Source of the DNA: a virus
Lineage: Duplodnaviria > Heunggongvirae > Uroviricota > Caudoviricetes
Virus record (IMG/VR): IMGVR_UViG_2563366971_000008
Reading direction: 5' to 3' (one strand)
DNA: 12,702 nt
The number at the start of each line of letters is the position of its first letter. Position 1 is the stretch's first letter. The notes under the pieces are model-generated. The model was not told the origin of the DNA. It was given only the letters and a program-made list of their open reading frames with translations, and searched no databases. Positions 1-12,702 of this stretch are shown here, one piece after another. The position numbers and the translations under genes are program-made.

Positions 1-1698
1 CTATACTTTAAAGAACTTATTTGTCGAAGATAACTCAAGGATCGAGTTACTCATCATCATTTTCATGTCCGCATCTTCTGAAAACTTATCACTTAATATT
101 GACACAATATATTGACCATTTATATTATTTGCTTCAAAAAATATATCTCTAATTTGATTCACATCGACATCTTCAATGCTATCATGAATAACAAAAGTAG
201 GTCTCTTTAATTTAATCTTATCCACAAACTTAATATAAGCCAAATCAAATGCAGTTATTTCACCTTTCTTCTTGCCGCCATTACTGTTTGGTGTAACGCA
301 TGATATATCAAAATTACACTTACCTTTATCAACATCAAAGGAAAGATCAAAAATGTATCTTTCCCCATATATTTCCTTTGTAAGATCACCAAAAAACTCA
401 TTGAAAATCTCGATGTTTTTTTCCAGACCTTGAACTGCTAACTCTATTTCTAAAAGTAATTTCTCTCGACTATCTTCAAGAGATTTTATGAGGGCATTTG
501 TATCATTAATACGCGAAAGATTAGACTCTATGCTAGCAAGATTTTCACGTAATTCAGTAAGCTTATTAAATAATTGATTTATAGACTTTAATGTTTCAGG
601 TTCTTTGATTGTTCTAAATAGGGATGATTCTTGTTCATGAAGATCATTGATTTTTTTATTTACAGTTTCTATTTCTTCTTTTTTCTTTAACAATTCAGAT
701 TCTAAAAAACTGATTTTATTCTTAATAATATCATTATGGAACAATACCATTTCTTCGTAAGTCCTTTTAAGTTCCCCATTAAAATAAATCCCCGCAGAAT
801 TATATATTTCCATTAAATCATTTTCTACAAGTTGTATGATATTATTCTTCAAGGACAAGATCGATTCTTCGATATTTCTTACTCGCATATTTAAGGAGGC
901 ATAGCTCAAAGAATAATCACTGATATTCTTCTGTATTTCTGAAAGCTTTTTTAAGCTTTCATCATGACTATCTTTAAAATCGAAGTTCTTAATATTTCTT
1001 TCCGCCTCTGCAATTTCTTTCTTCAGAGGCTTAATCATTTTTGCTAAAACAGTCTCTCTATTTGGATTCCTGTATGCGGCAAGATATGTCTTTTGTTTTT
1101 TTATCACTTTGTTAAAATCACCTTTTTTCTTTATCAGAGGTAGCCCATTGAACCCAAATAAAAACAAGTATAATAGATCATAGACATCAGGAGTCGTATT
1201 CCCATGTAAGAAATTAAGCGTTTTCTGCATTTTATCATTCGTGTTTCTAATAAATTTATGCGAAACATTCCTCAGTGATGGCTTATCTGTAGTTAACCCA
1301 AACACTGCTTGAGCTATAAATTCAGAATATTGTTTCTTATCTACTTCAACATCATTTAAAAAATATTTTGAATTTTTATCATCAATAGATATTATACGTG
1401 AAATAACTGCCTTTTTATTTTCTACCGTATTGAAATCCAATGAAAATTTCAAAACATTATTATTAATTAACGATACAATTTCAGGTATATCTTTTCCAAA
1501 CTCTGCATCATGATAAATATCATGACCTGATGACATAAATAAATAATCTAAAACACGCGATAATGTGGATTTACCTACACTATTGCCGCTATCTTTGCCT
1601 GATGTTCTTTTATTTACAATTAGATTCAGACCGTCTTTAAACGTCACCTCTCTTACAAGAGAGTCATTTTTTAAAATAATAAGTTTATTGAGCCTCAT
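1..1698 (-). CDS. SMC/ABC-type P-loop ATPase with central coiled coil (565 aa); candidate defence ATPase
   Basis: Complete ORF with ATG at 1698-1696 and stop at 3-1. N-terminus reads like an SMC/RecF head, with Walker A SGNSVGKST around residues 37-45. Residues about 200-440 are K/E/L-rich and heptad-like. C-terminus has a signature-like SNGG and a Walker B-like TFVIHD around residues 501-506. A GGTGGA Shine-Dalgarno sits upstream. Confidence 0.8.
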   Translation of the reverse strand: MRLNKLIILKNDSLVREVTFKDGLNLIVNKRTSGKDSGNSVGKSTLSRVLDYLFMSSGHDIYHDAEFGKDIPEIVSLINNNVLKFSLDFNTVENKKAVISRIISIDDKNSKYFLNDVEVDKKQYSEFIAQAVFGLTTDKPSLRNVSHKFIRNTNDKMQKTLNFLHGNTTPDVYDLLYLFLFGFNGLPLIKKKGDFNKVIKKQKTYLAAYRNPNRETVLAKMIKPLKKEIAEAERNIKNFDFKDSHDESLKKLSEIQKNISDYSLSYASLNMRVRNIEESILSLKNNIIQLVENDLMEIYNSAGIYFNGELKRTYEEMVLFHNDIIKNKISFLESELLKKKEEIETVNKKINDLHEQESSLFRTIKEPETLKSINQLFNKLTELRENLASIESNLSRINDTNALIKSLEDSREKLLLEIELAVQGLEKNIEIFNEFFGDLTKEIYGERYIFDLSFDVDKGKCNFDISCVTPNSNGGKKKGEITAFDLAYIKFVDKIKLKRPTFVIHDSIEDVDVNQIRDIFFEANNINGQYIVSILSDKFSEDADMKMMMSNSILELSSTNKFFKV

Positions 1699-1904
1699 AT
1701 ACTATTCCACCATTTCCATCTAACTCAATTGCGCCGATTATGAAAAGCCAATCTAATTAGTAAAGAAAAAGATCAAACGATAACTCGAAGATAGAATTTA
1801 CTAAATCATACAATCGAGATATTTCAATGACCATTGAATCATTACTTTGAAAGATCCTAAGCACTACACTTCCAATATATACAGGATTTGCTTTTGGATC
1901 CGTA
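1699..1904 (-). promoter_or_regulatory. 206-bp AT-rich spacer inside the cassette with a candidate internal sigma70-like promoter for the ATPase gene
   Basis: On the minus strand, TTTACT, a 17-nt spacer, then ATAATC lies about 30 nt upstream of the ATPase ATG. The gap is unusually long for an operon. This is motif inspection only. Confidence 0.25.
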
Positions 1905-2453
1905 TCAATTGTAATCATTTGGATTCTCCAGCACTATACATTCGATAATAGCATAGCTAACAATCATACGAATGCCATAATCAATATCTTCCTGTAAAAA
2001 CTCTGAATCTAAATTAGAACACGAACTAACTGTTTCTTGAGCAGCTCTAATAACATCATCTATAATATTATCCGAGTTTTTCCTTATGAGTTCAATGTTA
2101 AATGGTTTCTCATAAAGACCATATAATCCCAATGCAGTATTATAATAACCTCTAAACTGTCTTTTCAATTTGACACTACCATTTAAAATTATAGCATCAA
2201 GTGTTTTTATGGATTCATCAACTAGCAGAGCATCTTCTTTATAAAGTTCAGCTACCCATCTGTTTCTTTTAAGATCATTGAATTCTATTTTAACATCAAT
2301 ATTTGATGCTATTCTGTTTAAGTTTTGCTCGCTACCAACTGAATTAGAAATAATTTCAATTAACTTACCAATAACACTGGCTCTTAACATTCTTGGCTGG
2401 TTGTTTATATGCACAGGACCAGTATTATTATTGAAATTAACACCAGAACCCAT
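1905..2453 (-). CDS. hypothetical protein (182 aa), middle gene of the cargo cassette
   Basis: ORF with ATG at 2453-2451, preceded by a GGGGG Shine-Dalgarno formed by the last codons of the upstream gene (stop-TT-ATG coupling). No catalytic motif recognised; few His/Cys. Same strand and AT-rich composition as its neighbours. Confidence 0.7.
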   Translation of the reverse strand: MGSGVNFNNNTGPVHINNQPRMLRASVIGKLIEIISNSVGSEQNLNRIASNIDVKIEFNDLKRNRWVAELYKEDALLVDESIKTLDAIILNGSVKLKRQFRGYYNTALGLYGLYEKPFNIELIRKNSDNIIDDVIRAAQETVSSCSNLDSEFLQEDIDYGIRMIVSYAIIECIVLENPNDYN

Positions 2454-2455
2454 AA

Positions 2456-2728
2456 TTACCCCCGATTATCAATATTCACAGGACCATTATTATCTTGAAA
2501 ATATTGAGAACGCGCTCCTTGATTAATGAAGTTTCTATTAGTTGTAATTTTTACAATCTGGGAATTAAGATCATTTATTGTAATGTTAAGTTGTTTTATC
2601 TCATTATCTTTCTTGGTTACTTGCATAGTCTGATATATTGCTATACATCCAGAGATCACCCCAACAATATATCCAAAGGCACTTACATATTCGTTAGCAA
2701 GTAGTGATGCAATCATTTGGAGCTCCAT
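2456..2728 (-). CDS. small single-pass membrane protein (90 aa; possibly 86 aa from the second ATG at 2716)
   Basis: The ORF carries a hydrophobic stretch VSAFGYIVGVISGCIAIY (about residues 15-32) followed by a charged helical tail. The internal ATG at 2716 has a better Shine-Dalgarno (GGAG, 6-nt spacer) than the first ATG. First gene of the cassette. Confidence 0.6.
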   Translation of the reverse strand: MELQMIASLLANEYVSAFGYIVGVISGCIAIYQTMQVTKKDNEIKQLNITINDLNSQIVKITTNRNFINQGARSQYFQDNNGPVNIDNRG

Positions 2729-2985
2729 TTCAAGCTGAAAGATTTAAAGTCACAACAATCTCATCCTATTAGGGTAGCTAGGATAGCAACTCATGAAGAG
2801 TAAATAAATAGGTATTAATCATTATCGTTTACATGATCTAATTCAACATAGATCCACTCATGGCCTCTATACTTTCTCATAAACACAGTGTTTAGCTATG
2901 TGGGCTTAAGAGGTCTAAATTGATGTACTTACTTTATCAATTGATATAACCCCAAATTATAATCGTTTCATATCATTGACGCGCA

Positions 2986-3004
2986 GTGCTTTCCCCGCCT
3001 CGCC
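2986..3004 (-). other. P2/P4-type cos site (19-nt cohesive-end core)
   Basis: Minus strand reads GGCGAGGCGGGGAAAGCAC, which I recall as the P2/P4 cohesive-end sequence. It lies just downstream of psu, as in P4. Confidence 0.6.
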
Positions 3005-3027
3005 CGCCCGCTTTGTGGGGCGGTTTT
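3004..3027 (+). terminator. GC hairpin plus T-run next to cos
   Basis: CCGCCC, loop GCTTTGTG, GGGCGG, then TTTT. It overlaps the cos-flanking sequence, so the function is uncertain. Confidence 0.3.
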
Positions 3028-3105
3028 AATGCAGTTGTACTGACACGCTCAGACTGCGCCGGGAATGGCGCGGTCTGCAGAAAATGAGGCAGGGAAACGC
3101 ATGCA

Positions 3106-3138
3106 AAGCCATGCACCTTATCGATGCATGGCTTTTTT
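3106..3138 (+). terminator. rho-independent terminator-like hairpin between cos and psu
   Basis: Perfect 10-bp stem AAGCCATGCA / TGCATGGCTT with a 9-nt loop, followed by TTTTTT on the plus strand. An A-run precedes it on the minus strand, so it may act in both directions, including for the psu transcript. Confidence 0.5.
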
Positions 3139-3168
3139 CAGTAAAAACGGGCGGATTTTCGGGGAATT

Positions 3169-3741
3169 TTACACAGACTGACGTGATGCCAGTTGCGCAC
3201 TTTTACGCGAAAAAATCATGTTCTGCGCAGGGGTGAATTTTTCACGGCTGTCATCCACCGAAGCCGCGTCAGGCCTGAATCCGATGGTCGTTAAAATGTC
3301 GCTATCCTGTGCGGAATAATTAATTTTTTCCCCCTTCGCAAGCCAGGACAGAAGGGCTTCACGCAGGGCATCTGTGGCACGCTGTATGGCACAGTTTCGG
3401 GCAATGGCCGTCAGCTCACTGTAGCCCATCAGCTCCGGTGCCAGTGCGGCCGCCAGTGCTGTGCCGTGCTGCTGCATAAAATCATTCAGCCGGTCGCGGA
3501 TGCTGATGTGCTGAACGGCTTCATGCGAACGAATATAACGACCGGCAGCCTGATTCACCTGCCATTTTCTGACTTCGATAATATTGCGTAATTCGTCCAG
3601 GCGACTGACGTTTCTGCCTTCCCCTGACAGAAGCCGCAGATATTCCTGTTCGGCCGCAGCCAGCTCATTTTTGCGTTGCAGCCATGCTGCTTTGTTATTC
3701 TGACAGGTGTCAAAGGCCTGCTGTAAGGCTGTGCTTTCCAT
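3169..3741 (-). CDS. psu: Psu-like polarity suppression / capsid decoration protein (190 aa)
   Basis: 190 aa, the same length as P4 Psu, and last gene of the sid-delta-psu block next to cos. N-terminus MESTALQQAF matches my recollection of P4 Psu. Confidence 0.85.
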   Translation of the reverse strand: MESTALQQAFDTCQNNKAAWLQRKNELAAAEQEYLRLLSGEGRNVSRLDELRNIIEVRKWQVNQAAGRYIRSHEAVQHISIRDRLNDFMQQHGTALAAALAPELMGYSELTAIARNCAIQRATDALREALLSWLAKGEKINYSAQDSDILTTIGFRPDAASVDDSREKFTPAQNMIFSRKSAQLASRQSV

Positions 3742-3814: not shown

Positions 3815-4315
3815 TCATTCCAGACGCAGCGAATATGATTGTGTTTTTAAGCGTACTGGCGGCAGTTCCTGTTTTTCATGCAGGCTTTCTGCCAGTTCGT
3901 CCGGCGTGACCGGGCGGACAATAAAACGGTTGATGGTCTGAAGCGTTTTAAACACCAGACCACATCCCGGATCCGTGCACACATAAAAACGCTCGGTGAC
4001 TTCCTGAGACAGACGCCGCGATGTTCTTGACAGTGCAAGGCCTTTACATCTCCGACAACAATATCCGGTAACAAGCATTCTTTTCGGGCGTTTCATACTG
4101 CCGGAGGCTGACGTCAGTGAATCGCGGTATCTCTGTTTGCCTGAAATGTATTCCATTCCTGAATCTTTACTGTCAGAGAAAAAGCTTTCACTCGCTTCAA
4201 ATGTCGCAGAGCAATAAATATTCCGGCACTGTGCAATCATTATCTTGGTGCCATCGTCCATGAAATGTGCGCGGCGGGTGTGAGCAACATGTCCACACGA
4301 CGGGCAGTAAATCAT
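3815..4315 (-). CDS. delta: Delta-like late transcription activator (166 aa, tandem Ogr-type zinc finger)
   Basis: Two Ogr-like Cys motifs (CPSCGH...CRNIYC and CRRCKG...CTDPGC). 166 aa equals P4 Delta. Its ATG overlaps the sid stop (ATGA), as in P4. Confidence 0.85.
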   Translation of the reverse strand: MIYCPSCGHVAHTRRAHFMDDGTKIMIAQCRNIYCSATFEASESFFSDSKDSGMEYISGKQRYRDSLTSASGSMKRPKRMLVTGYCCRRCKGLALSRTSRRLSQEVTERFYVCTDPGCGLVFKTLQTINRFIVRPVTPDELAESLHEKQELPPVRLKTQSYSLRLE

Positions 4316-5064
4316 GACAGCACTCCTCTGGCCTTAAGCACTGCTCCCTGCTGGTCTATTTTGTCCTGCCACACCTTGCGCTGTGCCGGTGTGCCTGCCA
4401 CCTCATAATCCATGTGAGGAAGTGTTGCCGCTGACAGTCCGGTCAGCCGGAGAACCGGCTCGCCGGTGAGGCTGATTTGCATCTGTTTAATTTTCTGTTC
4501 CAGCGATGATTTCACCTGCTGCATGACAGCCTTTTCCGGTGCGACGTAGCCCTGATGGCCGGTGGTGTTGGCGAGCGGATTTTCCTGTACCAGAATGCTC
4601 AGATGCATTGCCCGGACAAGCGCCTCACAGGTTTCATTCAGGGCGTGTTCCAGCTCATGCTCTGCATACAGACTCAGAAGGTGATGATGTGCCTTCCGGT
4701 AGGCGGTGGCCGTGCTGTCACACGCCCCTTTCAGGCGTTCACGTTCGAAATTCAGCACCACGGCCAGATTGTCATATTCCTGTACCAGCTCCCGGCGTGC
4801 CACGCGCTCAATGTGGCGCTGTTTCAGCTCGTCGCTCAGGACACCACCGGCTGCACGAAAGGCCGTGCGCCAGTCGTCAGCGTCGTTTCCGTCGGCCTGC
4901 GCCAGCGCATTTTTTTCCTGCTCTGCCCGTTCAATGGCCGTGACGGTCTCATCCATCAGGCGGGCGTTCTCAAGATGGGCGGCTCTGGCCTTTTCCAGTT
5001 GTGCCAGCGCGGGTTGCAGATATTCAGGGATGGTGTTGTCAGACATTTTCCGGCTCCTCGTCAC
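4312..5064 (-). CDS. sid: Sid-like external scaffold / capsid size determination protein (250 aa)
   Basis: Position upstream of delta with translational coupling. Size is close to P4 Sid (about 244 aa). Alanine- and glutamate-rich helical protein. Confidence 0.8.
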   Translation of the reverse strand: MTRSRKMSDNTIPEYLQPALAQLEKARAAHLENARLMDETVTAIERAEQEKNALAQADGNDADDWRTAFRAAGGVLSDELKQRHIERVARRELVQEYDNLAVVLNFERERLKGACDSTATAYRKAHHHLLSLYAEHELEHALNETCEALVRAMHLSILVQENPLANTTGHQGYVAPEKAVMQQVKSSLEQKIKQMQISLTGEPVLRLTGLSAATLPHMDYEVAGTPAQRKVWQDKIDQQGAVLKARGVLS

Positions 5065-5080
5065 TTCAGGTTAAGAAAAT

Positions 5081-5136
5081 TGTGACGTACACCGGACAAC
5101 AACACGACGCATTGCAGATGTGCCAGCCCTGACACA
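5081..5136. promoter_or_regulatory. two TGT-N12-ACA dyads upstream of sid (candidate Ogr/Delta activator sites, Psid-like late promoter)
   Basis: TGT-N12-ACA at 5081-5098 and 5119-5136. This is the P2/P4 late-promoter activator dyad architecture, located just upstream of the sid start. Confidence 0.35.
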
Positions 5137-5214
5137 GGAGACTCATCCTCACACCGGCAAGCCAGGAAAAGGTCGCAGGAAAAACCGGCTTACTGTTTGT
5201 TTTTTATATTTTAC

Positions 5215-5318
5215 TGTTCACCTCTGTTCACCTTAATAAAAAAGATAATTAATACAGTAAGTTAAAGGGTGAACAATCGCAGTAATGACTGTTCACCGTC
5301 TGTTCACCACTGTTCACC
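5215..5318. repeat. iteron cluster: five direct and one inverted copy of TGTTCACC (P4 ori-like alpha-binding sites)
   Basis: TGTTCACC at 5215, 5225, 5290, 5301 and 5311, mostly at 10-11 bp spacing, with an inverted copy at 5268-5275. TGTTCACC is the P4 type I iteron bound by alpha. Confidence 0.6.
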
Positions 5319-5422
5319 CGTTCATGGACTTTTTGTGCTGTTTATTACTTTTTATTTTTATTAATTCGCCGGGAATGAATAAGAAAAAACGATTTGTATT
5401 TCACTATAAAAATTACGAATTG

Positions 5423-5452
5423 CTTTAAGTGGCTTTAAATGACTTTAAGTGG
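5423..5452 (+). promoter_or_regulatory. three tandem 10-bp repeats (CTTTAAGTGG / CTTTAAATGA / CTTTAAGTGG) upstream of the alpA-like gene
   Basis: Exact head-to-tail 10-bp periodicity about 145 bp upstream of the early-gene start. Candidate operator or early-promoter element. Confidence 0.4.
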
Positions 5453-5597
5453 AGATGAACAAAAAACACACAAGCATTATAAGACTGCCGGAACAAATCC
5501 CCCCTGTTGCGTCTGCTGAAAATATTCACAAAATAAAGCGCTACCCGAAGCCGGACGGACTTATCCGGTGCTGTATGGACATTAACGAGGTAGCCCG

Positions 5598-5864
5598 ATG
5601 CAAGCTGTTTTTTCTTCCCCGTCTCCCGCCCCTGTGACGCCACTGATGCCGCTGCCGGACATCACGCAGGAGCGTTTTTTACGTCTGCCGGAAGTGATGC
5701 ACCTGTGCGGCCTGTCACGCTCGACCATCTATGAACTCATCCGTAAGGGGGAATTTCCGCCGCAGGTGAGTCTTGGCGGTAAAAATGTGGCCTGGCTGCA
5801 CTCTGAAGTCACTGCATGGATGGCCGGGCGCATTGCCGGACGCAAACGGGGGTACGACGCATGA
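5598..5864 (+). CDS. alpA: AlpA-family (P4 orf88/Vis-like) helix-turn-helix transcriptional regulator (88 aa)
   Basis: 88 aa with the characteristic LRLPEV...[17 protein letters not shown] helix-turn-helix. GAGG Shine-Dalgarno 7 nt upstream of the ATG. Confidence 0.85.
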
Positions 5865-6262
5865 TGATGCCCGCTCTGCAAAAACTCCCTTTTTCTGGCT
5901 TGCCTTTTTCCGGCATTTGCGGATATAGTTTTTCCGCTGCCGCAAAATCGGCAGCCGGGCGTGGAAACCCGAGCAATTCACAGGCGACATATGACGCGCC
6001 ATGCGTCTTTTTTTGTGTCGCAATCAACGCCACAGAGCGCCAGATTATGGTGTGGTGTGTGGTCAGTCGTGCAGATGGCATTCCGTGCATCCTGCCCGCG
6101 TCCGCTCATTATGCCGCAGAGTCAATGGTAGCTCAGGCGGGGCAGCCTCCGGGCTGGCCGGTATCCTGTGAAGCCGGTATTTCCACCCCCGTCTGGGCTA
6201 TCGCCATCGAGCGTGGAAACTCCGGCGATAGCGTTATTTGCTATTCACAGGAGGCTGCCATC

Positions 6263-6460
6263 ATGGCTACAACCCTTACCCCCTCACACCCTGAATTTGT
6301 CTTTGTGTTTGCGGCTGTCCGTCGCACAGACCGTCATCCCCGTATCTGTATGCTTCGCACCGTCGCCGGTGATGAACGCAGTGCCCGCCGTTCCCTTGTC
6401 CGTGACTATGTGCTCTCCCTTGCTGCCCGTCTGCCGGTGGTGGAGGTGTCCCGTGCGTAA
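6263..6460 (+). CDS. hypothetical small protein (65 aa); start uncertain
   Basis: ATG at 6263 with GGAGG 8 nt upstream. The frame stays open upstream to 5816, but that part looks non-coding (low complexity, Cys/Trp-rich). Confidence 0.3.
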
Positions 6461-6740
6461 TAAAAAAGCCCCTCAGACCGTCTCAGCGCGTCATGACGCC
6501 CGTGAACACCTCAGCATTGAGGCTTACCATAAGCTCAACCGCGCCAGCGCCGTATCCCAGTTTGTTGGGGGTGATTTGATTCACCGTGAACTCTCCGGCC
6601 TGCATCAGCTCTACATTCCGCATATTTTCAGTTACCTGAATGAAGATATTGATTTTGTGCTGAATGAGCTGAAAGCCAAAGGCCTGTGCCGCGATTTTCT
6701 CGCCCAGCAGAAAGACCGGGGAGACAGGACGCATGTTTGA
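6453..6740 (+). CDS. small protein (95 aa), positional equivalent of P4 epsilon (derepression protein)
   Basis: GTG start at 6453 with GGAGG 6 nt upstream. It overlaps the previous stop and the next start. Size and position between the orf88-like and orf151-like genes match P4 eps; the sequence itself was not verified. Confidence 0.5.
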
Positions 6741-7188
6741 TTTTCCCCAGCCCGGTGAGATTTACCGTTCTGCCGGTTTTCCCGATGTGGCCGTGGTCGG
6801 CATTCTGGAAGACGGTATTCCGTGGGAAATGCCGTACCGCTGCCCGGACATTGTCTGGAACCCGTACCGCCGTAAATTCAGTATCCTTGTGCGTATCCTC
6901 GCTGACGGGCGCACCACAGACATCCCGCTGGGGCGTTTTCTGCGGGAATTTACCTGTGACCGTCCTGACCTGTTCAGACGCAGCCCCGTAAACCGGCATG
7001 CGGTACTGAAAGAAATGGCCGGAGACCCGGAATTACAGAAATGGCGGGAGAAATATCTGGATATTTACCCGCAGGACCCTGTTCCGGTCAGCCGGGCGGC
7101 ACCGGTGGCGCGGGAATGGCGGGAAATTCCCCGCACGGAGCCTGACCCGGAAATCACACCGGATAACAGTTACCGCAATTATCTGTAA
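6733..7188 (+). CDS. P4 orf151-like protein (151 aa)
   Basis: ATG overlaps the upstream stop (ATGTTTGA). 151 aa, same as P4 orf151, in the conserved position before orf106 and alpha. Confidence 0.7.
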   Translation: MFDFPQPGEIYRSAGFPDVAVVGILEDGIPWEMPYRCPDIVWNPYRRKFSILVRILADGRTTDIPLGRFLREFTCDRPDLFRRSPVNRHAVLKEMAGDPELQKWREKYLDIYPQDPVPVSRAAPVAREWREIPRTEPDPEITPDNSYRNYL

Positions 7189-7658: not shown

Positions 7659-8624
7659 ATGAAAATGAACGTAACCGCCACCGTCAGCCATGCGCTCGGC
7701 CACTGGCCGCGTATCCTCCCGGCGCTGGGGATTCAGGTGCTGAAAAACCGTCATCAGCCCTGTCCGGTCTGTGGCGGGAGTGACCGCTTCCGTTTTGATG
7801 ACAGGGAGGGGCGCGGCACCTGGTACTGCAATCAGTGTGGTGCCGGTGACGGCCTGAAACTGGTTGAAAAGGTGTTTGGTGTCTCCCCGTCCGACGCGGC
7901 CACAAAGGTGGCTGCCGTGACCGGCAGCCTGCCCCCGGCTGACCCGGCAGTGACGGCCGCCGCCGGTGCTGAAACAGACGCTGCCCGGAAGAACGCCGCC
8001 GCACTGGCACAAACCCTGATGGCGAAAACCCGTCCCGGAACCGGTAACGCCTACCTGACCCGCAAGGGCTTTCCCGGCCGGGAATGCCGGATGCTGACCG
8101 GCACACACAGAGCCGGTGGCGTGAGCTGGCGTGCCGGTGACCTTGTGGTGCCACTGTATGACGACAGCGGCGAACTGGTTAACCTTCAGTTAATCAGTGC
8201 TGACGGCCGTAAGCGCACCCTGAAAGGCGGACAGGTCAGGGGCACCTGTCACACCCTTGAAGGACAGAATCAGGCCGGAAAACGTCTGTGGATAGCGGAG
8301 GGATACGCGACCGCACTTACCGTGCATCACCTGACCGGTGAAACGGTGATGGTGGCGCTTTCTTCCGTGAATCTCCTTTCTCTGGCCAGCCTTGCCCGGC
8401 AGAAGCATCCGGCCTGTCAGATTGTCCTTGCTGCTGACCGTGACCTCAGCGGTGACGGCCAGAAAAAAGCCGCCGCAGCCGCAGATGCGTGTGAAGGTGT
8501 GTTGCCCTGCCGCCGGTCTTCGGTGACTGGAATGATGCCTTCACGCAGTACGGCGGGGAAGCCACCCGTAAGGCCATTTATGATGCCATCCGGCCACCGG
8601 CTGAAAGCCCGTTCGACACCATGA
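7659..8624 (+). CDS. alpha: alpha primase-helicase, N-terminal fragment (zinc-binding primase/TOPRIM part), interrupted by a frameshift
   Basis: AAGGAGA Shine-Dalgarno. CPVCGG...CNQCG zinc motif, then EGYATA and AADRD TOPRIM-like motifs. After about residue 280 the translation becomes Arg/Pro/Ser-rich nonsense, while the protein-like sequence continues in another frame. Confidence 0.8.
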   Translation: MKMNVTATVSHALGHWPRILPALGIQVLKNRHQPCPVCGGSDRFRFDDREGRGTWYCNQCGAGDGLKLVEKVFGVSPSDAATKVAAVTGSLPPADPAVTAAAGAETDAARKNAAALAQTLMAKTRPGTGNAYLTRKGFPGRECRMLTGTHRAGGVSWRAGDLVVPLYDDSGELVNLQLISADGRKRTLKGGQVRGTCHTLEGQNQAGKRLWIAEGYATALTVHHLTGETVMVALSSVNLLSLASLARQKHPACQIVLAADRDLSGDGQKKAAAAADACEGVLPCRRSSVTGMMPSRSTAGKPPVRPFMMPSGHRLKARSTP

Positions 8625-9991
8625 GCGAAGCGGAGTTTTCCGCCATGAGTACCAGCGAAAAGGCCATGCGTATCTATGAGCATTACGGCGAGGCGCTCGC
8701 GGTTGATGCCAACGGCCAGCTTCTGTCCCGTTATGAAAATGGTGTCTGGAAGGTGCTGCCACCACAGGACTTTGCCCGGGATGTGGCCGGGCTGTTTCAG
8801 CGGCTGCGCGCGCCGTTCTCCTCCGGGAAGGTGGCCTCCGTGGTGGACACCCTGAAGCTGATTATTCCGCAGCAGGAAGCCCCCTCCCGCCGCCTGATTG
8901 GCTTTCGTAACGGCGTGCTCGACACGCAGAACGGCACGTTCCACCCGCACAGTCCGTCACACTGGATGCGCACCCTGTGCGATGTGGATTTCACCCCACC
9001 GGTGGAAGGGGAAACGCTGGAAACCCACGCCCCCGCGTTCTGGCGCTGGCTTGACCGTGCCGCCGGTGGCCGTGCGGAAAAACGCGACGTGATTCTGGCC
9101 GCACTGTTTATGGTGCTGGCAAACCGCTATGACTGGCAGCTCTTTCTGGAGGTGACCGGTCCCGGCGGCAGCGGCAAAAGTATCATGGCCGAAATAGCCA
9201 CCCTGCTGGCCGGGGAGGATAACGCCACGTCGGCCACCATTGAGACGCTGGAATCCCCGCGTGAACGTGCCGCGTTAACTGGCTTCTCACTGATACGCCT
9301 GCCGGACCAGGAAAAATGGAGCGGCGACGGTGCCGGACTCAAGGCCATCACCGGCGGCGATGCGGTGTCCGTGGACCCGAAATACCGGGATGCGTACTCC
9401 ACGCATATCCCGGCGGTGATTCTGGCCGTGAACAATAACCCGATGCGCTTCACCGACCGCAGCGGCGGCGTGTCACGCCGGCGGGTGATTATTCACTTCC
9501 CGGAACAGATAGCCCCGCAGGAGCGCGACCCGCAGCTTAAGGACAAAATCACCCGCGAGCTGGCGGTCATCGTGCGTCACCTGATGCAGAAGTTCAGCGA
9601 CCCGATGCTCGCCCGGTCACTGCTTCAGTCCCAGCAGAACTCAGACGAGGCACTGAACATCAAACGGGATGCCGACCCGACGTTTGATTTTATCGGCTAT
9701 CTGGAAACCCTGCCGCAGACCAGCGGCATGTATATGGGGAACGCCAGTATCATCCCGCGTAACTACCGTAAATACCTCTATCACGCCTATCTGGCCTACA
9801 TGGAGGCAAACGGCTACCGGAATGTACTCAGTCTGAAAATGTTCGGGCTGGGGCTGCCGGTGATGCTGAAGGAATACGGGCTGAATTACGAGAAGCGCCA
9901 TACCAAACAGGGGATACAGACCAACCTGACGCTGAAAGAGGAAAGCTACGGCGACTGGCTGCCAAAATGTGACGACCCTGCAACAACCTGA
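8495..9991 (+). CDS. alpha: alpha primase-helicase, C-terminal fragment (helicase with Walker A GPGGSGKS, plus C-terminal DNA-binding part)
   Basis: This frame is open from 8495 (first ATG at 8621) and reads VALPPVFGDWNDAFTQYGGEATRKAIYDAIRPP before the listed ORF. The two fragments sum to 777 aa, the length of P4 alpha. Confidence 0.8.
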   Translation, partial: RCVALPPVFGDWNDAFTQYGGEATRKAIYDAIRPPAESPFDTMSEAEFSAMSTSEKAMRIYEHYGEALAVDANGQLLSRYENGVWKVLPPQDFARDVAGLFQRLRAPFSSGKVASVVDTLKLIIPQQEAPSRRLIGFRNGVLDTQNGTFHPHSPSHWMRTLCDVDFTPPVEGETLETHAPAFWRWLDRAAGGRAEKRDVILAALFMVLANRYDWQLFLEVTGPGGSGKSIMAEIATLLAGEDNATSATIETLESPRERAALTGFSLIRLPDQEKWSGDGAGLKAITGGDAVSVDPKYRDAYSTHIPAVILAVNNNPMRFTDRSGGVSRRRVIIHFPEQIAPQERDPQLKDKITRELAVIVRHLMQKFSDPMLARSLLQSQQNSDEALNIKRDADPTFDFIGYLETLPQTSGMYMGNASIIPRNYRKYLYHAYLAYMEANGYRNVLSLKMFGLGLPVMLKEYGLNYEKRHTKQGIQTNLTLKEESYGDWLPKCDDPATT

Positions 9992-10892: not shown

Positions 10893-11969
<1,077 letters not shown>

Positions 11970-11988
11970 GCGCAAAGGAATTGAGCGG

Positions 11989-12702
11989 ATGTATGATTTT
12001 GTGATTATTGGCGGCGGCATCATCGGCATGTCGACCGCCATGCAACTGATTGATGTTTATCCGGATGCCCGCATTGCGTTGCTGGAAAAAGAGTCCGGCC
12101 CGGCCTGTCACCAGACGGGCCACAACAGCGGCGTGATCCATGCCGGAGTCTATTACACGCCCGGCAGCCTGAAGGCGCAGTTTTGCCTGGCGGGGAACCG
12201 TGCCACTAAAGTCTTTTGCGATCAAAACGGCATTCGCTACGACAACTGCGGCAAGATGCTGGTCGCCACGTCTGAACTCGAAATGGAACGGATGAATGCG
12301 TTATGGAAACGCACGGCGGCAAACGGAATCGAGCGCGAGTGGTTAAACGCCGAGGAGCTGCGCGAGCGTGAACCGAATATCACCGGGCTTGGCGGCATTT
12401 TTGTGCCGTCCAGCGGCATTGTCAGCTACCGCGAAGTGACGGCGGCGATGGCAAAAATCTTCCAGGCCAGAGGTGGTGAGATTATTTATAACGCCGAAGT
12501 CAGCGCCCTCAGTGAGCATAAAAACGGCGTGGTGATACGTACCCGTCAGGGCGGTGAATATGAAGCATCGACGCTGATTAGCTGTTCCGGGCTGATGGCT
12601 GACCGGCAAGGTGAATACGTACTCTGCGGGCATGGGGCTGATGCCGGGTCATGTTTATCGCGCGCTTTATCCTTGCCCGCTGCACGGCATAAGCGAGGAT
12701 GA
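11989..12702 (+). CDS. lhgO: L-2-hydroxyglutarate oxidase LhgO (YgaF), 5' partial; runs off the window
   Basis: ATG at 11989 with AAGGAA 8 nt upstream. N-terminal FAD-binding motif MYDFVIIGGGIIG. The listed ORF start at 11923 lies inside csiD and is not the real start. Confidence 0.85.
   Translation: MYDFVIIGGGIIGMSTAMQLIDVYPDARIALLEKESGPACHQTGHNSGVIHAGVYYTPGSLKAQFCLAGNRATKVFCDQNGIRYDNCGKMLVATSELEMERMNALWKRTAANGIEREWLNAEELREREPNITGLGGIFVPSSGIVSYREVTAAMAKIFQARGGEIIYNAEVSALSEHKNGVVIRTRQGGEYEASTLISCSGLMADRQGEYVLCGHGADAGSCLSRALSLPAARHKRG

Follow-up and report, generated by a model that had tools for sequence, protein, structure and literature searches.

A four-gene, short-Lamassu-type operon with a candidate separate membrane effector as cargo of a P4-like satellite

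Lamassu defence systems are found in roughly 10–15% of prokaryotic genomes, and their known effectors are enzymes which are fused to the docking domain of the protein LmuA. Considered here is what may be a different arrangement, as found within a 12,702-nucleotide (nt) stretch of viral DNA (Caudoviricetes; IMG/VR record IMGVR_UViG_2563366971_000008). That whole stretch, at its full length, is described as ‘the window’. What it carries is a P4-like satellite, of which a cargo region at the left, positions 1–2985, holds a minus-strand operon of four genes. These encode, in order, a small putative membrane protein, a 182-amino-acid (aa) LmuA-like protein, a middle component (middle component 6, or MC6), and a 565-aa DUF2326 ATPase. 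With moderate confidence we take this operon to be a short-Lamassu/ABC three-component (ABC-3C)-type abortive-infection cargo of an ssrA-integrated P4-like satellite, i.e., one in which a separate membrane effector is recruited by means of a short sequence motif.

The four genes occur together well beyond the window. We fetched 18 genome loci, each encoding a relative of the 182-aa protein, from genera which include Tatumella, Enterobacter, Siccibacter, Kosakonia, Photorhabdus, Vibrio, and Pseudoalteromonas, with further sources being Colwellia, Microbulbifer, Crenothrix, Methylophilaceae, and others. The same operon is present in all 18, that is, as a small protein of 83–100 aa, a 181–189-aa protein, MC6, and an ATPase of 565–572 aa, although in one of these loci (L005, of Siccibacter) a frameshift interrupts the small gene. 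Far more distant small proteins, as found in metagenome or genome loci, precede the same three genes in eight of eight cases, such that the small gene stands directly upstream of the gene for the LmuA-like protein in 26 of 26 loci. The junction between those two genes is tight, with an overlap of 4 nt at one extreme and a gap of 5 nt at the other across loci, and the order that follows is LmuA-like, then middle component, then ATPase. The MC6 gene shares 14 nt with each of its neighbours, i.e., with the gene for the 182-aa protein and with that for the ATPase. Purifying selection is seen on all four genes, with ratios of nonsynonymous to synonymous substitution (dN/dS) of 0.05–0.22 versus the Tatumella, Enterobacter, and Kosakonia copies (0.10–0.22 for the small gene), except that the short gene of MC6 gave 0.56 in one comparison. 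Such ratios mark all four as real coding genes. The initial annotation of this DNA, which described three co-oriented minus-strand genes, was correct in that those three open reading frames (ORFs) do exist (Table 1), and missed the fourth, i.e., MC6, along with the nonsense mutation which that gene carries in the window.

Among complete Escherichia coli genomes the cassette is present in 28 of 5,426, and it was absent from the plasmid and phage collections searched. A divergent four-gene copy (L022), at 4001–6876 of a 43-kb Logan contig, belongs to a P2-like prophage, as its neighbours Ogr/Delta, GpD, and GpU indicate, and the system therefore is not confined to the satellite but is found among its helper phages, too. 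A distant copy (L025/L026, 3001–5736) is flanked by SIR2_2-domain, Lon_C/ChlI-type (BrxL-like), and Endonuclease_1 genes, a neighbourhood that looks like a defence island. Contexts that speak for a role in defence are the P4-like hotspot of the window, the P2-like prophage of L022, and the SIR2 and Lon-like neighbours of L025.

ABC-3C and Lamassu are treated in the Lamassu literature as one superfamily, consisting of LmuA, which is an effector plus a C-terminal domain (CTD), LmuC, which is the middle component, and LmuB, which is the ATPase. The 182-aa protein has the characteristics of the LmuA docking domain, i.e., of the CTD. The Pfam profile CTD10 matches the window’s own protein weakly (E = 0.004) and matches 14 of the 31 members of its family, at best with E = 9.2e-7. 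An AlphaFold2 (AF2) model, with a mean predicted local distance difference test (pLDDT) of 77, is all-helical from residue 25 to 182, and its top Foldseek match is YydB, an effector-side protein that was modelled together with YydD (PDB 9a6c; probability 1.0, E = 0.06, query template-modelling score 0.53). The C-terminus, IIECIVLENPND, is almost invariant in the family. Searches of Pfam, NCBIfam, and PADLOC found no enzymatic effector domain, with only about 24 residues preceding the helical domain, and none of the enzymes that form the N-terminus of LmuA (Cap4, Mrr, Sir2, lipase, protease, HNH, and others) was recognized. Sequence searches with the profile of this family, or with the ATPase, found no PDB chain. 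Because of CTD10 along with the superfamily scheme, the 182-aa protein is read as LmuA cut to its docking domain and not as an ABC-3C middle component, though a ‘middle gene’ is how it had at first been described. What stands at its N-terminus is a motif, GVNFNNNTGPVHINNQ, at residues 4–19 (2397–2444), which is predicted to be disordered and for which the family consensus is GV.F..N.GPV.I.N.

The small protein has two possible starts. ATG 2716, giving 86 aa, is the more likely, since a GGAG precedes it by 6 nt and the Prokaryotic Genome Annotation Pipeline (PGAP) also begins the gene there; residue numbers here are those of the 90-aa form. A hydrophobic helix spans approximately residues 14–34 (2627–2689), the best 19-residue Kyte–Doolittle window, residues 14–32, scoring 1.73. 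That helix possesses a small-residue zipper, G19-x3-G23-x3-G27, which homologues keep as G-x3-(G/S)-x3-(G/A), and glycine-zipper-like patterns are typical of membrane helices which self-associate. The protein also has a coiled-coil spacer, the length of which differs among species. At residues 70–90 (2459–2521) is an invariant C-terminal motif, QGxxSQYFQDNxGPVNIDNRG, with QG..SQYFQ(D/E)N.G(P/S)V.IDNRG as its family form and with N, Q, G, and S accounting for 52% of these last 21 residues. An exhaustive hidden Markov model (HMM) search of 1.84 billion representatives placed 30 clusters in the family, all of them small proteins of one kind except for a single 508-aa coiled-coil protein, which is taken as spurious. 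We infer from its sequence that the small protein is a single-pass membrane effector, one that is encoded apart from LmuA.

It is the resemblance between the motifs of these two proteins that ties the proposed effector to the remainder of the system. The small protein ends in a motif like the one with which the product of the neighbouring gene begins, an arrangement which is also a feature of amyloid-signalling pairs. When the two families are compared using hhalign, the C-terminal 16 residues of the small protein align with residues 4–19 of the 182-aa protein with P = 5e-5, versus P = 0.26 for a reversed control and P = 0.56 and 0.086 for MC6, values by which MC6 is ruled out as a third bearer of the motif. 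This comparison was made without the natural fusion described below (P0003), as an earlier version that contained the fusion row was inflated and was discarded. Local alignments between the two proteins of the same locus have z values of 2.8–7.3 versus shuffles and scores of 27–45, reaching at least 40 in 8 of 18 loci, with approximately 13 residues aligned for the window’s own pair. For comparison, the published criterion for amyloid pairs is a local alignment of at least 15 residues with a score of at least 40 (BLOSUM62, gap 14/4). Word-indexed and exhaustive HMM searches for the motif on other types of effectors yielded the small-protein family alone and hence no sign of a modular motif, noting that motif-only matches would score too low in such searches.

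The two motifs, that is, do more than resemble each other, as they also co-vary. Across 10 divergent lineages the summed score of cognate pairs is 340, versus 226 ± 20 upon permutation, with 0 of 20,000 permutations reaching 340, and 9 of the 10 columns have their highest score with the cognate partner. At the residue which follows the conserved glycine, the two partners read P/P within the main family; L022 has V/I here, L025 and L029 have D/D, and in L027 the G-P is lost from both partners. Independently diverging paralogous segments would not show such matching, and the co-variation therefore points to selection for matching or instead to gene conversion. Matched residues have the same codon in 63 of 108 cases, and because synonymous codons frequently differ, selection is favoured over simple recent gene conversion; for that same reason gene conversion as the sole cause of the match was judged unlikely.

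A natural fusion of the small and 182-aa genes, joined in register, is present at 538–1284 of a 1,398-bp ENA metagenome contig (P0003/L032), as seen in one contig of one sample only. It arose by an in-frame 60-nt deletion between the two motif-coding repeats, and the start of MC6 then follows. The product has membrane helix, stalk, motif, and CTD10 in a single chain, which is the canonical LmuA layout. Its AF2 model (pLDDT 83) consists of a long helix at 9–59, a disordered motif region at 60–92, and a helical CTD, with the motif region being disordered as well in the monomer AF2 models.

The two remaining genes supply what would be the sensor. Consistent with LmuB, the 565-aa protein is an ABC ATPase of the SMC/Rad50-like kind, in which a coiled coil is inserted and both the Walker A lysine and a Walker B motif are present. 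It matches Pfam DUF2326 with E = 1.2e-17, which is above the curated cut-off, and PGAP names it a ‘DUF2326 domain-containing protein’. Full-length matches are to PADLOC’s PDC-M68B (E = 1.4e-45) and LmuB (E = 2.7e-15), and there is a match as well to phrog_5467 (E = 2.4e-36). The P-loop is GNSVGKST, with Lys43, encoded at 1570–1572, in agreement with the Walker A lysine at about residue 43 that had been proposed from the sequence. A signature-like SNGG is found at residues 472–475, a Walker B-like FVIHDS at 502–507 (Asp506 encoded at 181–183), and matches to coiled-coil-type profiles over residues 210–430; a CxxC zinc hook was not found in the 565 aa. Short LmuB has been described as possessing an hhhhD[Q/S/T/E] Walker B and a variable zinc hook (PMC12663957), a description which these motifs fit. 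The intact MC6 allele, of strain KY175, matches Pfam MC6 with E = 2.7e-13, also above cut-off, and six homologues from other genera score alike (together with KY175, E of 1e-12 to 1e-15), the annotation by PGAP in other strains being ‘ABC-three component system middle component 6’. MC6 lies between the effector-side gene and the ATPase gene, as expected of LmuC, with the window copy being a pseudogene.

With DUF2326, LmuB, MC6, and CTD10 all found by profile, the likeness to Lamassu or ABC-3C that had been proposed for the cassette is borne out, and with three of its genes in curated families the cassette is, so far as profiles indicate, a member of the Lamassu/ABC-3C superfamily. The description ‘undescribed’, however, was too strong, because curated ABC-3C/Lamassu families already take in all of the genes but one, and a clade without effector domains has been published (PMC12663957). 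That is a short-Lamassu clade, of many species, whose LmuA seemingly lacks an effector domain, being down to its CTD, whose LmuB is short, whose LmuC is non-truncated, and for which there is no validated function (PMC12663957). The present family, as matched by description only, probably is that clade or its sister. What differs is that the paper in question has neither the membrane protein nor the motif (the word ‘membrane’ occurs 0 times), whereas the extra gene is universal in the window’s family. In the searchable literature we found no mention of a conserved small membrane protein which has a co-evolving motif pair with an LmuA-like protein, no paper that joins ‘amyloid signaling’ with ‘Lamassu’, and, for ‘LmuA’ plus ‘transmembrane’, no title concerning a membrane-protein Lamassu effector. 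The small membrane protein and the motif pair thus appear to be new, as far as the searchable literature shows.

Versus short Lamassu/ABC-3C systems, i.e., DdmABC of Vibrio cholerae (which is Lamassu Vc-Cap4) and LmuACB of Salmonella (PDB 9nxx and 9hqx), the window’s LmuA-like protein is without a nuclease, lipase, Sir2, or protease domain, has a 20-residue motif instead, and is accompanied by a fourth gene, for a membrane protein with the matching motif. With PADLOC’s PDC-M68, which has an A and a B component and is itself a candidate system, the likeness is in the full-length match of the ATPase to PDC-M68B. PDC-M68A, the profile of which is of about 200 aa, matches only the CTD10-type partner of a distant relative, and that weakly (E = 6e-4). 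At E ≤ 1, none of the window’s proteins matches PDC-M68A, and the 182-aa protein, MC6, and the small protein have no counterpart among the PADLOC models. By these matches the cassette would be a sister group of PDC-M68 and not the same entry. YydB-YydC-YydD of Bacillus subtilis, a DUF2326-type ABC-3C with an integrative model (PDB 9a6c), shares the DUF2326 ATPase with the window. YydB is of 481 aa and therefore has sequence beyond the approximately 175 columns that align. That additional sequence presumably is an enzyme domain, placed at the N-terminus, and the make-up given here for the yyd operon is presumed likewise. Domainator’s ‘Lamassu-var’, from E. coli TB182A, was rejected as being the same system, as it has MC2 and no membrane protein. 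That locus (L033; E. coli O55:H7 TB182A, NZ_CP038295 4116517–4120474), of another ABC-3C type and experimentally tested, encodes a soluble 138-aa PD-(D/E)xK-like ORF, a separate 205-aa ‘ABC-3C protein’, and an ATPase in the form of two ORFs, of 394 and 188 aa.

How might such a system work? By homology to characterized Lamassu, the DUF2326 ATPase (LmuB-like) together with MC6 (LmuC-like) would serve as a sensor of phage DNA ends or of replication intermediates, and at rest this sensor would hold the 182-aa LmuA-like protein via its CTD10. Sensing would free the CTD10 protein, which then would oligomerize, as LmuA does in characterized systems. Its N-terminal motifs, so clustered, would engage those at the C-terminus of the membrane protein, whether by pairing or by templating. 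The transmembrane helices, with their small-xxx-small zippers, would in this way be brought together, the membrane would be permeabilized, and the infected cell would die, which is to say, abortive infection. The pairing between motifs may be amyloid or instead simple beta-strand pairing. In its stronger form, i.e., an SMC-family sensor signalling to a separate membrane pore-former by prion-like templating of an amyloid-type motif of about 21 residues, the proposal is a tentative one. If correct, however, this would be the first amyloid-signalling module outside of NLR- or TPR-type receptors, and would explain killing by the ‘effector-less’ Lamassu clade.

The closest precedent is Bab/Agp of E. 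coli, in which a 109-aa, hydrophobic-helix protein is activated by amyloid templating from the N-terminal motif of an adjacent sensor (bioRxiv 10.1101/2024.11.07.622273). The amyloid-signalling pairs compared, which are Bab/Agp (BASS11), the Bell/NLR BASS pairs, and fungal HET-S/NWD2, share their layout with the window: the genes are adjacent, and a protein of about 90–110 aa, which starts with a hydrophobic helix and ends in an N/Q/G-rich motif, has a partner with the matching motif at its extreme N-terminus. The likening of the small protein to Bell and Bab is by layout and motif, not by domain homology. In contrast with Bab/Agp, the window’s partner is a Lamassu docking-domain protein along with an SMC-like ATPase, i.e., a CTD10 protein within an ABC-3C operon, where the amyloid pairs have as their receptor an NLR/STAND or TPR-type (e.g., TPR-PIN) sensor. 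In addition, the small gene comes first in the window, and the motif is short (13–16 aligned residues) and has a conserved proline.

For the published clade without effector domains the mode of action is puzzling, and a separate membrane effector plus motif would be a concrete, testable answer. Were it so, then SMC-type sensors would join Bab/Agp and NLR systems in using a motif-mediated, possibly amyloid-like relay, and the lists of Lamassu effectors, in DefenseFinder and in PADLOC’s rules, would need revision.

The small protein could, from a different perspective, be an anchor or regulator, one which by way of the motif pair tethers or restrains the complex of LmuA-like protein, LmuB, and LmuC at the inner membrane, e.g., near where phage DNA enters. 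Defence then would be the work of the ATPase complex itself, through its binding of DNA ends or of intermediates of replication, and a dedicated effector would not be involved. Motif pairing and strict co-occurrence fit tethering just as well as they fit activation, the published clade lacking an effector domain keeps LmuB and LmuC intact (PMC12663957), and the hydrophobic helix is only moderately hydrophobic. A catalytic effector, however, has been required for Lamassu activity wherever tested, small single-pass effectors occur in several abortive-infection systems (PMC9122126), the conserved small-xxx-small zipper suggests helix–helix assembly, and the Bab/Agp precedent is that of an effector. 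Anchoring strikes us, overall, as doubtful, and a membrane effector remains the preferred role for the small protein.

The window’s own copy of the system is damaged. Codon 54 of MC6 is TAA (1757–1759) in place of TCA (Ser54), a single C>A change versus strain KY175. This nonsense mutation leaves a 53-aa ORF at 1757–1918, one which scores just 16 bits against the MC6 profile, and the segment that is lost, SLDWLF..GA..L..G..Y, is the best-conserved part of the protein. The TAA allele is found in 6 of the 28 E. coli cassettes (N17, N24, N39, N47, N64, and MS20657), with 22 of the 28 intact, including those of strains KY175 and cq9. LmuC has been needed in every Lamassu where that was tested, according to the Lamassu literature, and because of this requirement together with the TAA the window’s system is most likely inactive; that is, this copy probably is non-functional. 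Cloning of the cassette accordingly would be better done with an intact MC6 allele, such as that of KY175 or cq9.

Decay of this sort raises the prospect that the cassette as a whole is a decaying remnant of a Lamassu system, one whose effector domain is gone, whose middle component in the window is gone, and which has no present role. Other copies have decayed as well: a frameshift splits the small gene at 4727–4998 of L005 (Siccibacter colletis), and in P0112 another frameshift affects the C-terminus, which is without the motif. The MC6 nonsense mutation and these decayed copies are what such an interpretation would anticipate. The same four genes nevertheless have been kept intact in lineages as far apart as Enterobacterales, Vibrio, Crenothrix, and Methylophilaceae, dN/dS is about 0.05–0.2, most of the E. 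coli copies are intact, and the motifs co-evolve. For the family, then, we view mere remnancy as unlikely and assign it a low probability, whereas for the window copy alone it is likely.

Several points nonetheless weigh against a membrane-effector, abortive-infection role for the four-gene cassette. The defence role of this architecture, as well as the physical pairing of its two motifs, is proposed on the strength of sequence. Insertion into membranes, oligomerization, and toxicity are similarly suggested only by a helix that is moderately hydrophobic. The alignment of motifs is short, of 13–16 columns, which is at the edge of what amyloid-pair criteria accept, and occasional gene conversion (concerted evolution) may have contributed to the matching. 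Given the nonsense mutation in the window’s MC6, present activity of this copy cannot be assumed. Lastly, a P4-borne ‘Lamassu missing a known effector’, which may or may not be the present cassette, gave no protection against 28 phages (PMC13586616), an outcome that would be in line also with a remnant. Should the proposal be correct, then that non-protective ‘Lamassu variant’ construct may have been without the small gene or instead have carried a defective allele.

Table 1. Features of the cargo region of the window and its right limit
Feature	Position	Strand	Basis or remark
LmuB-like ABC/SMC-like ATPase, 565 aa, DUF2326	1..1698	-	Pfam, PADLOC, motifs
LmuC-like gene for ABC-3C middle component 6 (intact length 77 aa)	1685..1918 (234 nt)	-	Pfam MC6, PGAP
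LmuA-like docking-domain protein, 182 aa	1905..2453	-	CTD10 profile, AF2, Foldseek
Small membrane protein, 90 aa (ATG 2728) or 86 aa (ATG 2716)	2456..2728	-	Hydropathy, synteny
Non-coding leader, cos to first cassette gene	2729..2985	-	Presumed cassette promoter region
cos, 19-nt cohesive end GGCGAGGCGGGGAAAGCAC	2986..3004	-	1 exact match, 0 expected by chance; right limit of the cargo

The cassette occupies a known sort of location, i.e., the region of a P4-like element that lies between cos/psu and integrase, which is a hotspot known to house defence systems (PMC9122126). To the right of the cargo are psu (3169–3741), delta, sid, and the alpha primase, while the integrase side is to the left. 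The right limit is the 19-nt cos sequence of P2/P4. Homology to P4 (X51522) ends at window position 3005, where the end of the P4 record aligns. GC content is approximately 0.30 over 1–2800 versus approximately 0.53 from 3000 on, i.e., cargo versus satellite backbone, and the break in composition at cos, along with the foreign, AT-rich cargo in a P4-type hotspot that the initial annotation had recognized, are both upheld. Its suggestion of further cassette genes to the left is not: In E. coli genomes that are identical over 1–3200, the integrase coding sequence ends 1 base before window position 1, beside ssrA, such that the stop codon of the ATPase, at 1–3, abuts that of the integrase outside of the window. 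As bounded by integrase and cos, the cargo is complete. A consensus scan of the leader found no minus-strand promoter-like site, with counts for the region being close to those of shuffles.

Residence in a satellite allows for a role in which it is the satellite itself that is served, that is, by interference with a P2-type helper or with rival satellites, by superinfection exclusion, or by addiction. Carriage by P4-like satellites of several genera and by a P2-like prophage would agree with this, as would the position of the cassette directly beside cos. Most related loci, however, are outside of recognizable P2/P4 elements (e.g., L009, L016, L018, L025, and L031), and hotspot cargo is mostly anti-phage (PMC9122126, PMC13586616). 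We therefore regard service to the satellite as very improbable as the primary role, noting that such service and defence overlap in practice, and retain abortive infection as the favoured function.

Elsewhere in the satellite the P4 immunity RNAs are intact (window 5923–6208, by Rfam), consisting of the C4 antisense RNA at 6121–6208, isrK at 5936–6013, and the a1/b1 target element at 5923–5975. The alpha primase–helicase gene (7659–9991) has a 1-nt deletion at 8495–8505 (a T in GGTGTTGTTG) versus strains N17 and KY175, by which this 777-aa gene is broken up into two ORFs, of 321 and 456 aa. Of the 1,007 E. coli genomes that have the segment, strain N24 was the only one to match it at 100%, and the frameshift may be a private mutation, hence further decay, or instead an error of sequencing or assembly. 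To the right of the satellite, at 10992–12702, are a 325-aa ORF and the start of an ORF of at least 259 aa, which presumably are csiD/glaH-like and lhgO-like, respectively. If so, then the satellite is placed between ssrA and the csiD region.

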